Origin: Escherichia coli
Lineage (GTDB): Bacteria; Pseudomonadota; Gammaproteobacteria; Enterobacterales; Enterobacteriaceae
Assembly: GCF_017348835.2 (NCBI RefSeq)
Contig: NZ_CP072313.1
Direction: 5' to 3' (one strand)
Length of the DNA stretch: 36,351 nt
Shown here: one piece after another, positions 7,301 to 36,235 of the stretch
Layout: every line of letters starts with the position of its first letter
Numbering within the stretch: the stretch's first letter is position 1
Program-made: the position numbers and the translations under genes
The notes under the pieces: generated by a model
What the model saw: the letters and a program-made list of their open reading frames with translations, nothing else
What the model was told of the DNA's origin: nothing
Database searches by the model: none

Positions 7301-7554
7301 GATGTCGCGCCAGCGACATGTAAGGCGGTACGCTGTGGTTACATGTGGAACTGGAGTAAAACCGCCGAAGCCCGGCGTAAGCCGGTACTGATTGATAGAT
7401 TTCACCTTACCTATCCCCATCCTGCTAAGCCATACCCGCTTTCAGCCATGACGGAGTTTCTGTGCGCGGTCGGAGTGGTCCCGACAAGGGTTTACCCGAA
7501 GTCGGGGCGTATCTCCGCGTTAGCGGGCCGTTAGGGCCGCTTACGAGCGTGTAT
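7301..7554 (+). repeat. type-C structured element copy 1; inverted partner at 35981-36235
   Basis: about 95% identical to the reverse complement of 35981-36235; shares the 5' hairpin and CTGCTAAGCC core with types A and B. Confidence 0.8.
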
Positions 7555-7599
7555 TCGATACTTCCAGCCAGAGGACTGACAGCGACGATGACGCTTAGT

Positions 7600-8148
7600 T
7601 ACAACATCCATTATTAAAAGCGATGTTGTTCCCGCCCTTTGGGCGGGGGCGGCGGCGCTTTTCAGTGATGGGTTGGGCGCTGTGGCTGAGTATTTGCAGC
7701 GTTTTTTGTAGGAGGGTTGGAGGGGCTTTGTTTTTCATCGGGCAGAAGTTCATATGCCCGCCGCGAAGCGGTGGGAGGTACTTTTATATTCTGAGCGGCG
7801 CGGCTTTAGCCGCTGCAAGCGAAGGCATTTTTGTGATTATCCACAGTTGTTTCAAAGATAAATATTTTCCCTGCGGCGAAGCAACGCTGGGGATTAAAGA
7901 ACAGGGGTTAAGAATATATTGCAGGTTTGATCTTCTATGTTTGCTGCTTTCTGAAGTTATTCGTTTGCGGTTTTTTGTGAATAACCGAAGGCGGTTTAGC
8001 TCCGATACCCGATTGTGGCCATCAAAAAACTGTCAGAGCGGGACAAAATGAAAAACGGTCGTCAAAAATGAGGAATTTCATGAAATGCAGGCAACACGAA
8101 AAGCCCCGAAGGGGCTGAAGAGAGTGCCGATTGTATCAGGCAGCTAAA
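7600..8148. other. candidate replication origin region downstream of repA
   Basis: consensus DnaA box TTATCCACA at 7837-7845; GC-rich then A/T-rich blocks; position matches IncFII-type plasmids where the origin lies 3' of repA. Confidence 0.4.
8097..8118 (-). terminator. rho-independent terminator after repA
   Basis: minus-strand RNA forms GCCCC-UUC-GGGGC followed by UUUU, about 30 nt after the repA stop. Confidence 0.5.
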
Positions 8149-9204
8149 CTAGTGGGGTGGAGAAGCTGTCAGGGCCAGTTCAAGCTGACGTAGATCCCTG
8201 GCTACCAGTTGCTCTAATCTTTCTTTAGTGCACCAGTACGCTTCGTCCGGCGACATACGCTTCAGAATAAACCGTGCAATTTCGTTTCGCTGTTCATCAT
8301 ACGGCAGTTTTGCAAGGCGATTGGCACGTTTGCGCTTTGCTGCTTTCTCTCGTCGGAACTTGATGGCATCGAGAGAACGCTGCGCATACCAGCGTTTACG
8401 AGCCGAGTGAACAGAGATTTCCTCGCCCTCGCGGATAACGCCTTCTTTAATCAGTTGCAGACGGATTTCACTTTCTGCAAGGCGCTTACGTTGCTGTTCC
8501 TGAAGTTTCACCAGATCAACTCCCAGCATTTTCCAGCCAGTTTCGGTGATCCAGACGTATTTCGGCAGTCGCTGGCGGGATTCACGGTCCCATATCGTCT
8601 TTTCTGACGTTCCCAACGTGCCAAAGGAAACCTGCTCTGCCAGCAGACGGGAAAGGCGCGATACTGTGACTGCGGTTTCAGGAATAACGTTTCCCTTACT
8701 GTCTTTTGGGCTTATTTCTTCTGCCAGGCGGGAGACAGACATGCCGACAGTGTGCAATCCACGATCACAAAAACTCACAAGTACAACCCATATTGCGTCA
8801 AGCAGCCGCTGTTTCTCCGGTCGGAATTTATATTTGCGACCGACACTCTGACGTTTCAGTACATAAAATGGATGCAACGACATATGCATTCTGAGTGTGT
8901 ACTGACCAGTGACCGGGTCTTTTTTAACGAGACGATTGTAAGCGTGGCCCAACTGTCCGCCCAGCGCCTTATAGCTGTCGGGACGGAACCAGGCTGGATT
9001 CTCACACTTTGGCTTAGTGGAATGTTCACCACGGCGGCGCTTCGTGCTCCGTTTTTCCGGTTCAACCAGAAATGACGTGGCCCTGCCCGATTCGTAATCC
9101 TCCCAGAAAAGGATTTGCTCTTCGGGAGACAGTTCACTCCAGTGTAATGAAGGCCTGTTCAGGGAAGCCATAAGCAATCGCTTATGGCAGAGCTTGATTC
9201 GCAC
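8149..9204 (-). CDS. repA: plasmid replication initiator RepA (IncFII/IncI-complex RepA family)
   Basis: overall resemblance to RepA1/RepZ-type initiators; GTG start at 9204, alternative ATG at 9171; terminator and DnaA box downstream, antisense-RNA-like hairpin upstream. Confidence 0.7.
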   Translation of the reverse strand: MRIKLCHKRLLMASLNRPSLHWSELSPEEQILFWEDYESGRATSFLVEPEKRSTKRRRGEHSTKPKCENPAWFRPDSYKALGGQLGHAYNRLVKKDPVTGQYTLRMHMSLHPFYVLKRQSVGRKYKFRPEKQRLLDAIWVVLVSFCDRGLHTVGMSVSRLAEEISPKDSKGNVIPETAVTVSRLSRLLAEQVSFGTLGTSEKTIWDRESRQRLPKYVWITETGWKMLGVDLVKLQEQQRKRLAESEIRLQLIKEGVIREGEEISVHSARKRWYAQRSLDAIKFRREKAAKRKRANRLAKLPYDEQRNEIARFILKRMSPDEAYWCTKERLEQLVARDLRQLELALTASPPH

Positions 9205-9264
9205 AGTGCATTTTTACACCGGACGATATTGAATAATGAGGAAAGCATCATGTATACTGTCTTC

Positions 9265-9346
9265 CAAGGGATTTCCCCTGCCCCCATTAAACTTTGATCG
9301 GCCTCTGCCAAGAAACGGATGCAAAGTTAATGGGGGTTTGTTTTTT
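9265..9346 (+). ncRNA. candidate antisense copy-control RNA (CopA/Inc-RNA-like) in the repA leader
   Basis: plus-strand promoter -35 TTGAAT (9229-9234), 18-bp spacer, -10 TATACT (9253-9258); 15-bp stem (9281-9296 with 9322-9336) followed by T-run 9337-9346. Confidence 0.45.
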
Positions 9347-34171: not shown

Positions 34172-34927
34172 ATGAAAAACTCAATAAATTTTATCCTTCA
34201 AGGAAAAGGCGGTGTAGGAAAATCATTTACAACGGCAATACTAGCACAATACTTTATTGATGAAAAAAACATGGATAACGTCGTTGTAGGCGACACAGAT
34301 CCTGTAAATACAACTACAGTTAAAGTAAAAAGATTAAATGCTGATTTAATACAAATCACTGAAAACAGCAAAGTAGTCCAATCTAAATTCGATCCAATGT
34401 TCGAATCAATGCTAACTAATGGTCAAAATACATTTGTCATTGATAATGGTGCTTCTACATTTTTACCATTAATTCAGTATTTCAATGACAACTATGTAAT
34501 GGATATGTTTAACGAAGTTGAACAAGAAGTTTATATCCATACTATTATTGTTGGCGGTCAGGCACAAGCAGATACAATAGAAGGTTTTGAAGATCTTGTT
34601 AAACTAGTAAAAGGAACAAAAGTAAAAATAATAGTATGGATTAATGAATTTCAGGGTGCACCAGCACTTGAAAACATTCCTTTAATTAAAACTAAATTCA
34701 TTGAAAAAAATAAGGATGTCATCGCTGGAGTTGTGGTTATTCAGGACAGAAAAAGCGATGCCTTTGCTTCTGACATCAAAAATTTAACCGAAAAATCACT
34801 AACATTAAAAGAAGCCCTTGAATCAGAATATTTTGGATTAATGGCTAAATCTCGTCTCAAGCGAGTTTTTAACGATATATATGTGCAACTTGATTCAATC
34901 TATGACATGCAGCACACAGAAGCATAA
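34172..34927 (+). CDS. ParA/MinD-superfamily P-loop ATPase (StbB-like)
   Basis: deviant Walker A GKGGVGKS near the N-terminus; adjacent to putative oriT. Confidence 0.7.
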   Translation: MKNSINFILQGKGGVGKSFTTAILAQYFIDEKNMDNVVVGDTDPVNTTTVKVKRLNADLIQITENSKVVQSKFDPMFESMLTNGQNTFVIDNGASTFLPLIQYFNDNYVMDMFNEVEQEVYIHTIIVGGQAQADTIEGFEDLVKLVKGTKVKIIVWINEFQGAPALENIPLIKTKFIEKNKDVIAGVVVIQDRKSDAFASDIKNLTEKSLTLKEALESEYFGLMAKSRLKRVFNDIYVQLDSIYDMQHTEA

Positions 34928-34976
34928 GTGATTATATAACAGCCCTTATGGGCTGTTATATTCATGAGGACAAGTT

Positions 34977-35654
34977 ATGATTAATGATAAATCCTTTAAC
35001 ATTGAAAACATTATTTCTGATATTTTTAAAGAAACCAGATTAAAAATAAGTAAGGACGATCCTGTTTTAAGCATAGTACTAATGCATGAAAAAATACTCG
35101 AACATGCACTAACACAACTTAAAAACAGTAATCAAATAGCTACTGAAAGATTATCTCATGACATATCTTCAATAAGAGATGCAATCAACGCATTACCTGA
35201 AGCTATTGATGAAAAAACGTCAGAACTACAACATGCAGCAGTAGCACTTCATGACGAATTCCAGGAAAGCAAAGGAGAAATTAAAGGTTCTCTGGAAGAA
35301 GCACGAATTAATGCAACAGAGAAATTAGCAGAAAGTGCAAAAGAACTTCAATTAAACATTACAAAAGTTGCCGAAAAAACAACAGAAACAATAGACACAG
35401 TAAATAAAATAATAAGCAATATAGAAACCGAACTATATGACATAAATAAAAAAGCTCTACATGATTATGTAAAAGAGATTAAGTTAGTGGATGAAAAAAG
35501 AAAAAGTATAACAACTAACCTGGAAAGTGCAATTAATGACGCTTTCAAAAAAAGCGTAAAATCGTTTAAGTTTTATTGTAGCGCGGCATTAATTATTAGC
35601 ACTCTACTACAATTCACAATGTGGGGGTTCTTTCTATATAAGCTTCTGACCTGA
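34977..35654 (+). CDS. coiled-coil protein with C-terminal transmembrane anchor (225 aa)
   Basis: GAGGA Shine-Dalgarno; C-terminal hydrophobic segment AALIISTLLQFTMWGFFLY. Confidence 0.5.
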   Translation: MINDKSFNIENIISDIFKETRLKISKDDPVLSIVLMHEKILEHALTQLKNSNQIATERLSHDISSIRDAINALPEAIDEKTSELQHAAVALHDEFQESKGEIKGSLEEARINATEKLAESAKELQLNITKVAEKTTETIDTVNKIISNIETELYDINKKALHDYVKEIKLVDEKRKSITTNLESAINDAFKKSVKSFKFYCSAALIISTLLQFTMWGFFLYKLLT

Positions 35655-35860
35655 TGTTTTAAATGCCGCTTTAGCGGCATGGAAGGCGGCACTCTGTAGC
35701 TAAATGTGGTTTCGCTGGTTATCCGCCGAAGCCCCGCGCTAGCGGGTGCTGAATTCTATATTCTGAGGAACAGCGCTCGCGCCCCCTGCTAAGCCAAAAA
35801 CGCACGAAACCAACAGCCACTCGATTGTTTCTGGTCGAAGACTGACAATGTTAAAGCGAC
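35655..35860 (+). repeat. type-B structured element copy 4
   Basis: hairpin ATGCCGC-TTTA-GCGGCAT; starts at the stop of the upstream gene. Confidence 0.8.
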
Positions 35861-35980
35861 GTGACAAAAATATTTGAGCAACTACTCAAGAAAATTCGGT
35901 TTTGAAATTGAACAATGGTCTGATTTCACACCGACAATGCAATATTAATCTGCCGTTACAACGTCACTGAAACTCTGCTC

Positions 35981-36235
35981 TACACGCTCGTAAGCGGCCC
36001 TGACGGCCCGCTAACGCGGAGATACGCCCCGACTTCGGGTAAACCCTCGTCGGGACCACTCCGACCGCGCACCGAAACTCTGTCATGGCTGAAAGCGGGT
36101 ATGGCTTAGCAGGATGGGGATAGGTAAGGTGAAATCTATCAATCAGTACCGGCTTACGCCGGGCTTCGGCGGTTTTACTCCAGTTCCACATGTAACAACG
36201 GAGTGCCGCCTTCCATGCCGCTGACGCGGCATATT
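35981..36235 (-). repeat. type-C structured element copy 2, inverted relative to every other copy
   Basis: reverse complement is about 95% identical to 7301-7554; hairpin ATGCCGC-GTCA-GCGGCAT on the minus strand. Confidence 0.8.

Follow-up and report, generated by a model that had tools for sequence, protein, structure and literature searches.

The 36,351-nucleotide stretch of Escherichia coli DNA analysed here (NCBI RefSeq assembly GCF_017348835.2, contig NZ_CP072313.1; hereafter the window) carries ten related repeat elements of three types, A, B and C, of which the two complete type-C copies, C1 and C2, lie in inverted orientation to each other. We consider it likely that C1 and C2 are two cis-acting, non-coding modules of ~250 nucleotides (nt), each composed of a signal for priming on single-stranded DNA, a so-called G-site, followed by a 'repA4' tail, that C1 is the replicon's own copy, and that the pair does not act as an inversion switch. 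Neither the identity of the elements nor the verdict against a switch depends on which of the readings of C2 discussed below holds. The two elements are located as follows.

7301–7554, plus strand: C1, complete type-C element; arm of the inverted repeat, 94% identical to the IncF element past repA
35981–36235, minus strand: C2, second complete type-C element, in the leading region; arm of the inverted repeat, kept in 8 of 9 relatives

An inverted repeat pair on a circular conjugative plasmid

When C1 was aligned with the reverse complement of C2, the mean column identity was 97%, and a repeat finder delimited inverted-repeat arms at 7302–7553 and 35981–36232 that span 252 nt and are 95% complementary. 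A repeat of this extent is beyond chance. The first-pass annotation had described the two copies as about 95% identical, and the alignment shows a sharp loss of homology at both borders of the element. The same annotation had made its view of the pair conditional on the window being a circle. A query that joined the two ends of the window (35560–36351 followed by 1–300) matched five complete plasmids of E. coli without a break, at 98%, and the window is therefore circular: it is the complete, circularly permuted sequence of a ~36-kb E. coli conjugative plasmid with an IncFII-family RepA (typed IncI2), a VirB-type secretion system and a MOBP relaxase. Across the window junction the interval between C1 and C2 measures 7.4 kb (36236–36351 plus 1–7300), and not the 8 kb that had been estimated. 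For the near-identical plasmid pMB9635_3, the annotation of this segment lists leading-region genes (CcgAII, a J-domain protein and genes of small regulators) together with ParA and Phd/VapC.

A common core of three hairpins and a start block

A hidden Markov model (HMM) of the core recognized exactly ten sites in the window, of which all but C2 are in plus orientation, and the motif CCTGCYARRCC likewise had ten window sites (0.08 expected) with the same nine-to-one distribution. The earlier statement that all eight remaining elements share the plus orientation therefore stands. Types B and C are homologous across ~190 nt, and in type A the same core is preceded by a 5' extension and followed by a C-like tail. 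All ten elements contain the start block CCTGCTAAGCC, which lies at 7421–7431 (plus) in C1 and at 36113–36103 (minus) in C2. The parts of the two type-C elements are the following.

7302–7437, plus strand: G-site core of C1, with three hairpins, TACTG and CCTGCTAAGCC (core HMM, E = 6e-35)
7448–7553, plus strand: tail of C1, GC-rich and structured (tail HMM)
36097–36232, minus strand: G-site core of C2 (core HMM, E = 3e-37; motif match)
35981–36086, minus strand: tail of C2, 'repA4'-type (tail HMM, E = 2e-35)

The three hairpins 5' of the start block were examined in 32 distinct copies from the plasmid, its relatives, F and R100. With a hand-specified structure, 95% of the cells were paired, compared to 28–41% in slid-partner controls, and six pairs showed compensatory changes. 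RNAalifold recovered only eight pairs from the cores, for which reason the structure was specified by hand.

The last ~105 nt of the C elements are nearly invariant in 14 of 14 aligned copies, with 5' halves that diverge by up to ~35%. In plasmid L003 (CP044026.1), coding sequences named 'Replication protein RepA4' have been called over both tails (2844–2966 in the C2 tail, 10122–10241 in the C1 tail); since the element below them is structured and non-coding, these calls are probably artefacts of annotation. The repA4 region was found by transposon mutagenesis to be needed for IncF plasmid maintenance (PMC4398462). A C-tail-like sequence also occurs alone in F (NC_002483.1, 40689–40783, minus strand), near RepFIB. 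Among known RNA families, an Rfam gathering scan of the whole window retrieved an AgrB antisense RNA only, outside the C elements, and an E-value scan of 7250–7650 gave nothing credible. We also considered a transposon or a miniature inverted-repeat transposable element and rejected it: the termini of C (GATGTCGC.../...GCGTGTAT) do not mirror each other as inverted repeats, no target duplication is seen in the flanks, and there is no transposase in the annotated near-identical relative.

C1 belongs to an IncFII-type replicon

C1 matches at least 5000 plasmids at 90–95% identity, mostly of the IncF type and with IncI2 plasmids included. In the IncF plasmid L002 and in R100 (C at 90266–90519), the element is found ~600 bp past the repA stop codon and on the strand opposite to repA, exactly as C1 is placed with respect to the following features of the window.

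8149–9204, minus strand: repA, IncFII-family replication initiator (NCBIfam NF040977, E = 2.5e-93; annotation in relatives)
7650–8148, no strand, approximate limits: oriR region, IncFII-type, between repA and Ter/C1 (comparison with R100)
7837–7845, no strand: DnaA box TTATCCACA within the oriR region (sequence)
7590–7612, minus strand: Ter (Tus-binding) site GGATGTTGTAACTAAGC, between oriR and C1 (sequence; R100-like layout)

The order in R100 is repA, DnaA box, two ter sites and C, and that of the window is repA, DnaA box, Ter and C1. For R1, a review places two ter sites in the interval that separates the minimal origin from the start site of leading-strand synthesis (PMC10331603); given that this layout of oriR, ter sites and start is matched, C takes the place of the leading-strand start site. 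C2, unlike C1, has neither repA nor oriR alongside. A primase-dependent 'G-site' at this place was reportedly described by Masai and Arai in 1989, with a reported likeness to the origin of complementary-strand synthesis in phage G4; Tanaka and colleagues reportedly dealt with the IncFII R1/R100 G-site in 1994. As a side observation, an open reading frame for a helix-turn-helix-like protein of 53 amino acids (7032–7193, minus strand) lies directly left of C1, and this reading frame together with C1 is common to ~60-kb IncI2 (mcr-1-type) plasmids.

Likeness to the origins of G4-type phages

The pattern CTGC.A[AG][AG]CC occurs once per genome in phages G4, alpha3, phiK and St-1, each time on the viral strand and in the intergenic region that contains the complementary-strand origin. 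In the G4 record, the primer is annotated at 3970–3997 and the origin at 3998, which corresponds to the CTG of CTACTGCAAAGCCAAAAGG. The plasmid start block CCTGCTAAGCC recurs unchanged in alpha3, phiK and St-1 and almost unchanged in G4, and CCTGCTAAGCCCAAAA of the alpha3-type phages is identical to B1 over 16 nt. In local alignments to the G4 origin, B1 and B2 reached z-scores of 3.9 and 4.9, respectively, on the plus strand only. G4-type phage origins are primed by DnaG alone on single strands coated with SSB, and priming of this type resists rifampicin and does not depend on PriA. Judged by its sequence, the core is a G4-type priming signal, a G-site, with a predicted dependence on primase. 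Primer synthesis is accordingly predicted to start opposite T7423 and to proceed leftward at C1, and to start opposite T36111 on the minus-strand template and proceed rightward at C2.

All elements except C2 lie on the presumed transferred strand

To place the elements with respect to conjugation, the remaining copies and the transfer origin have to be considered.

33410–33752, plus strand: presumed oriT, with an inverted repeat, GTGCCTG|TG and ACCCACA-type repeats, between the relaxase operon (minus) and the traL-side genes (plus)
29724–33409, minus strand: relaxase operon, with a MOBP/LPD7 relaxase of 1095 amino acids and an accessory protein of 134 amino acids; lagging end of transfer
689–1113, plus strand: A1, G-site-like core (832–967) and tail, joined to sequence that lies upstream of a leading gene on the minus strand
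2449–2873 and 4519–4944, plus strand: A2 and A3, A1-like
21378–21663, plus strand: A4, partial
10601–10798, 14978–15175 and 23722–23919, plus strand: B1, B2 and B3, G-site-type, after stop codons of plus-strand transfer genes
35662–35859, plus strand: B4, G-site-type, tail-to-tail with C2 at a distance of 121 nt

The relaxase operon runs leftward from 33409, the TraL-side genes run rightward from 33753, and the leading genes (80–4522) are on the minus strand. Relaxase genes are usually the last to enter, and the transferred strand serves as template for the leading genes (PMC11541004). From these orientations we infer that the plus strand is the transferred strand and that the nick lies near 33514. 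The presumed oriT itself comprises an imperfect inverted repeat at 33464–33510, GTGCCTGTG and about ten ACCCACA-type repeats at 33540–33685, which may be binding sites for an accessory protein. A sequence with a match to the MOBP nick consensus YATCCTGY, CATCCTGC, is present within the C elements (C1, 7418–7425, plus; C2, 36109–36116, minus). We rejected it as a nick site because ATCCTG is missing in the B elements and in the C copies of R100, L009, L008 and L011, and because it overlaps the primase start block, with which the match probably coincides by chance. The adjoining TTTCACCTTACCTATCC recalls the RP4 nick region.

Nine of the ten window elements are thus on the inferred transferred strand, and C2 is the sole exception. 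The same strand rule was found elsewhere, as the transferred strand carried the single copy of F, both copies of R100, five of five in an IncI2 plasmid, and six of six and eight of eight, respectively, in the IncFII plasmids L020 and L021. In F (65393–65528, minus) and R100 (49803–49937, minus) a G-site core copy lies within ~1 kb of oriT on that strand. Since the replicon's C element is on the transferred strand in each plasmid, it would be usable for vegetative as well as conjugative priming. Annotations of the plasmid family, including those of relatives L004–L011, list no primase gene, and a type IA topoisomerase gene is present; the lack of an annotated primase fits a reliance on host DnaG and on many cis-acting signals.

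Some further observations concern single elements and genes of this set. A1–A3 are composites in which the core and the C-like tail are joined to the ribosome-binding site and start codon of a leading gene on the minus strand, and in A1 a sigma-70-like promoter with a palindrome can be seen by eye at ~760–800; a primer from a type-A core would make the adjoining promoter and gene duplex first. The partial copy A4 sits between virB11 and virD4. The AgrB antisense RNA detected by Rfam (29631–29716, plus strand, 62 bits) is found in relatives beside the DinQ-like type I toxin gene dqlB, just past the 3' end of the relaxase gene.

A model for priming from the elements

In the explanation that we favor, the three hairpins would fold once the ~135-nt 5' part of an element becomes single-stranded, upon which host DnaG primase would begin a primer at the CTG of CCTGCTAAGCC and DNA polymerase III would extend it back through the hairpins. 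At the replicon, RepA would open oriR and expose the signal just past the Ter site, such that leading-strand synthesis would be primed at C1 and would move to the left, with repA behind it, as described for R1. Eight further core elements, of types A and B, lie on the same strand as C1, and the nine signals on the inferred transferred strand could therefore prime discontinuous complementary-strand synthesis in the recipient. C2 would be a flipped copy of a two-strand unit, consisting of a G-site and a ColE1-like primosome assembly site (pas), 2.6 kb into the leading region. There it may serve to prime the retained strand in the donor, or it may be a passenger or a fossil.

C2 is part of a larger unit and is conserved

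Next to C2, the sequence continues across the window junction as follows.

36236–36351, plus strand: spacer and first part of the pas-like sequence, forming a ~415-nt unit with C2
1–45, plus strand: rest of the pas-like sequence, containing GAAGCGG; spans the window junction

Read as 45..1/36351..35981, these ~415 nt form one block that is homologous to the unit at C1 in the related plasmids L009 and L007. The pas-like part gave two collinear plus/plus matches to ColE1 1304–1364, which are weak and short (E = 1e-4 and 0.05, with 6.6 kb searched), are in the lagging-strand template sense of ColE1 and contain GAAGCGG. In L009, L007 and L020 the pas-like sequence is located beside oriR on the strand opposite to the G-site, where the two would make a sensible unit for priming both strands. 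As the unit is flipped at C2, its pas-like half falls on the transferred strand and its G-site on the retained strand. The pas-like sequence (36296–36351 plus 1–45) was present in only 43 PLSDB records, often beside replicons, and the region differs in length by 17 nt between the window and pMB9635_3.

C2 lies inside the leading region, at a distance of ~2.6 kb from where the nick is presumed. Eight of nine relatives keep it in the same orientation and between B4 and the first A element, in three flank contexts. Variable sites of C2 avoid the columns that are conserved in the family (4/48 versus 44/92, p = 1.5e-6), a test with some circularity, given that B/C hybrids are among the C2 copies and that gene conversion could mimic selection; all five C2 variants retain the positions conserved in the other elements.

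A degenerate Ter-like motif, GTGACGTTGTAACGGCAG, was noticed 6–30 nt beyond the 3' end of C2 (35951–35975, minus strand), with the same polarity as the Ter site at 7590–7612; it is kept in L006, L007 and L009 and absent in L008 and L011. We rejected it as a working Tus site, as, judged by eye against the Ter consensus, the TA that should follow GTTGTAAC and the G of position 6 are both missing, and as a working site beside C2 would block the plasmid's only fork. It is therefore probably not functional.

Passenger or priming site in the donor

It is quite possible, although we would not bet on it, that C2 is without a function of its own, as the passenger half or a fossil of a replicon-type pas and G-site unit, which would have come to the leading region by copying or have remained there after fusion with a second IncFII-like replicon. 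The one-block homology of the ~415 nt to the oriR-adjoining units of L009, L007 and L020 argues for such an origin, as does the degenerate Ter-like motif just past the C2 3' end, an arrangement seen in replicons. If any part of the unit were selected, it would with a similarly tentative degree of confidence be the pas-like half, which faces the transferred strand: it is on the plus strand in the sense of the ColE1 lagging-strand template, the leading region of L020, in which there is no C2, includes a partial pas-like sequence on the transferred strand, and the pas-like part has outlasted the deletion of C2 in L010. However, the homology to the replicon unit ends exactly at the C 3' end with no remnant of oriR or repA, and L009 has kept C2 without the pas-like flank. 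Moreover, C2 has not decayed, with hairpins, start block and tail intact in all lineages, even though gene conversion by C1 could maintain it in this state.

We regard it as unlikely, yet worth attention, that C2 primes the retained strand in the donor, whereby unwinding from oriT would expose the minus strand, beginning at its leading end, and a single primer would be extended rightward as a continuous replacement strand. C2 is the only minus-strand site, 2.6 kb past the presumed nick, and synthesis from it would follow the direction of unwinding, which mirrors the arrangement of C1 downstream of oriR. One such site near oriT would be enough, and this would account for the nine-to-one asymmetry as well as for the proximity of the single site to oriT. 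Furthermore, C2 was kept in eight of nine relatives though both of its flanks have been replaced in different lineages, and all of its variants have the canonical start block and the family-conserved columns. Against this, the textbook model uses the 3'-OH at the nick for replacement synthesis and needs no site; F, R100, the IncI2 plasmid and the two IncFII plasmids have no minus-strand copy; L010 persists without C2 and B4; and conservation within one plasmid family may reflect common descent.

Inversion and module edges

The first-pass annotation had suggested that the inverted pair might mediate inversion of the bracketed segment or mark the edges of an acquired module. We consider it improbable that the repeats serve as substrates of homologous recombination by which the 7.4-kb segment flips, or that they are the edges or scars of one acquired module, even though 252 nt at 95% identity would be ample for RecA-dependent exchange. 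Inversion was not supported by any of our comparisons. Nine of nine related plasmids were collinear with the window, with C1 and C2 in the same place and orientation in eight of them. A synthetic junction of the inverted isomer was found, at a cover of at least 80%, in 0 of 20,395 complete E. coli records, compared to five with the native junction, in a search of assemblies that are blind to low-frequency isomers and in a family of which only ~10–14 close relatives exist; the best matches to the synthetic junction were native C1 junctions. The segment contains no recombinase gene in the near-identical annotated relative, in which leading genes, ParA, Phd/VapC and RepA are listed. Inversion should also be counter-selected, because it would misorient the leading genes and the nine priming sites by moving them to the non-transferred strand, and the repeats are independently conserved as priming signals.

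The idea of module edges fared better in part. Homology with L007 and L011 starts 4 nt before C1 and homology with L009 ends 3 nt inside C2, which places breakpoints 3–4 nt from the 5' edges of C. In L010 (NZ_CP129266.1; 26380–26440, compared with L011 11374–12857), a deletion has removed C2, hicAB, a DUF5397 gene and B4, and has joined the palindromic first hairpins of C2 and B4 into a solo hybrid hairpin, ATGCCGCTGGAAGCGGCAT. In L006 the interior of C2 is C1-like and represents a conversion tract, and some C copies have B-type 5' halves. Because of these edge breakpoints, the L010 deletion and the L006 conversion tract, the C copies can be viewed as recombination-active landmarks, and their edges are, on these sequence comparisons, seams of mosaic evolution. 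They are not, however, the two ends of a single acquired module. The proposed comparison with relatives thus revealed breakpoints at C edges but no presence or absence of the segment, since none of the relatives examined lacks it as a whole, and the leading region within it is common to the whole family and to IncI2 plasmids, in the same orientation and with a single C in the latter.

Lastly, it is very improbable that B4 and the antisense C2 pair on the incoming strand into a long Frpo-like hairpin that acts as a single-strand promoter or primer site or as a roadblock delaying conversion of the leading region: long leading-region hairpins do act as single-strand promoters and, in F, as a roadblock (bioRxiv 10.64898/2026.01.09.698686; PMC12672017), the plus strand at 35655–36240 is predicted to fold back on itself as a single long hairpin with imperfect pairing (−130 kcal/mol, z −9.4) and the C2 5' half is B-type in L008 and L011 (~90% identical to B copies), but such a fold is expected of any inverted repeat, each element also makes perfect local hairpins and B4 enters first, there is no minus-strand gene downstream to transcribe, no good −35/−10 pair was found at B4–C2, 1 kb of toxin-antitoxin genes separates the arms in L008 and L011, and there is no sequence similarity to F Frpo.

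Points that weigh against the priming modules, and significance

Several observations, in addition to the blindness of assemblies and the possible effect of gene conversion mentioned above, weigh against our reading of C1 and C2 as priming modules. C1 alone aligned weakly to the G4 origin (z 1.4). A blastn search with C1 as the query had no match among 50,697 phage records, and neither did the core HMM against G4, alpha3, phiK and St-1; the case for a likeness to phages is therefore made by the start block, by the GGAAGGCG motif and by an architecture of three hairpins. The start block itself varies, with CTTGC in C1 of L008 and L010 and CCTGCCAGAC(C/T) in R100 and in C1 of L009. Among 36 distinct cores, folding energy showed no strand asymmetry in favor of the sense strand, the antisense being on average ~1 kcal/mol more stable, and folding energy is therefore useless for naming the functional strand. 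The nearly invariant tail is left unexplained by the identity as a priming signal. Primase dependence and the primer start site are derived from homology and the transferred strand from gene order, and the nick site is a predicted one. Finally, L010 has neither C2 nor B4, and as it persists, maintenance does not require C2.

Taken by itself, the repeat pair is ordinary, in that priming signals of this kind were described decades ago for R1/R100 and phage G4. The arrangement is unusual, and most notable are the strand rule and its single exception, C2. Three hairpins followed by CCTGCTAAGCC provide a family definition at the sequence level with which any plasmid can be screened. Ten such signals are present here on a conjugative plasmid of 36 kb that has no annotated primase gene, and as the strand rule extends to F, R100, IncI2 and IncFII plasmids, it would make complementary-strand synthesis after conjugation readable from the plasmid sequence. 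C2 offers a clean handle on the question of whether synthesis of the replacement strand in the donor needs a primer site of its own. If it were indeed a donor site, it would be a cis-acting element for conjugal DNA synthesis in the donor, a step usually assumed to need none, and host-primase signals would be distributed asymmetrically between the strands, with many for discontinuous synthesis in the recipient and exactly one near oriT for continuous synthesis in the donor. In practical terms, "RepA4" gene calls over such elements are probably not genes, and the conserved C modules are seams at which plasmid backbones are shuffled.

Comparison with known systems

Hin/Gin-type switches and shufflons likewise consist of a segment flanked by inverted repeats. 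Here, in contrast, there are no recombinase, isomers or short crossover sites, and the repeats are long structured modules that occur singly in thousands of plasmids. A closer parallel is RSF1010, in which ssiA and ssiB are two priming signals on opposite strands with outward synthesis, similar to B4 and C2, which are 121 nt apart and tail to tail. The RSF1010 signals, however, are 40 nt long, are unrelated in sequence, serve the plasmid's own RepB' primase and lie inside oriV, whereas C1 and C2 are 7.4 kb apart.

The sequence adjoining C2 is similar to the primosome assembly site of ColE1/pBR322 (n'/PriA site, ~150 bp downstream of ori), GAAGCGG included. Unlike the ColE1 site, the candidate pas-like sequence is in the leading region and on the transferred strand. 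The leading-region ssi and Frpo sequences of F, R100 and ColIb-P9 have in common with the window elements a strand-specific placement suited to events on the entering strand. Frpo differs in that it depends on RNA polymerase and has a different sequence, and the A, B and C models match F only at one core copy, which is not Frpo; C2 differs from every ssi copy found in other plasmids by its position on the opposite strand.

The origins of phages G4, alpha3, phiK and St-1 and the plasmid elements are alike in having three hairpins followed by the start block, and share the GGAAGGCG motif. They differ in spacing, as the plasmid elements have their start block ~30 nt past the last hairpin, and type C has an additional 105-nt tail; overall sequence similarity is low. 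The G-site of the IncFII plasmids R1 and R100 is the same element as C1, with ~94% identity, a position ~600 bp past repA and beyond ter, and placement on the leading-strand template. What the plasmid studied here adds to that arrangement is a second full copy, inverted and 7.4 kb away outside any replicon, together with eight diverged copies of the core that are distributed over the plasmid.

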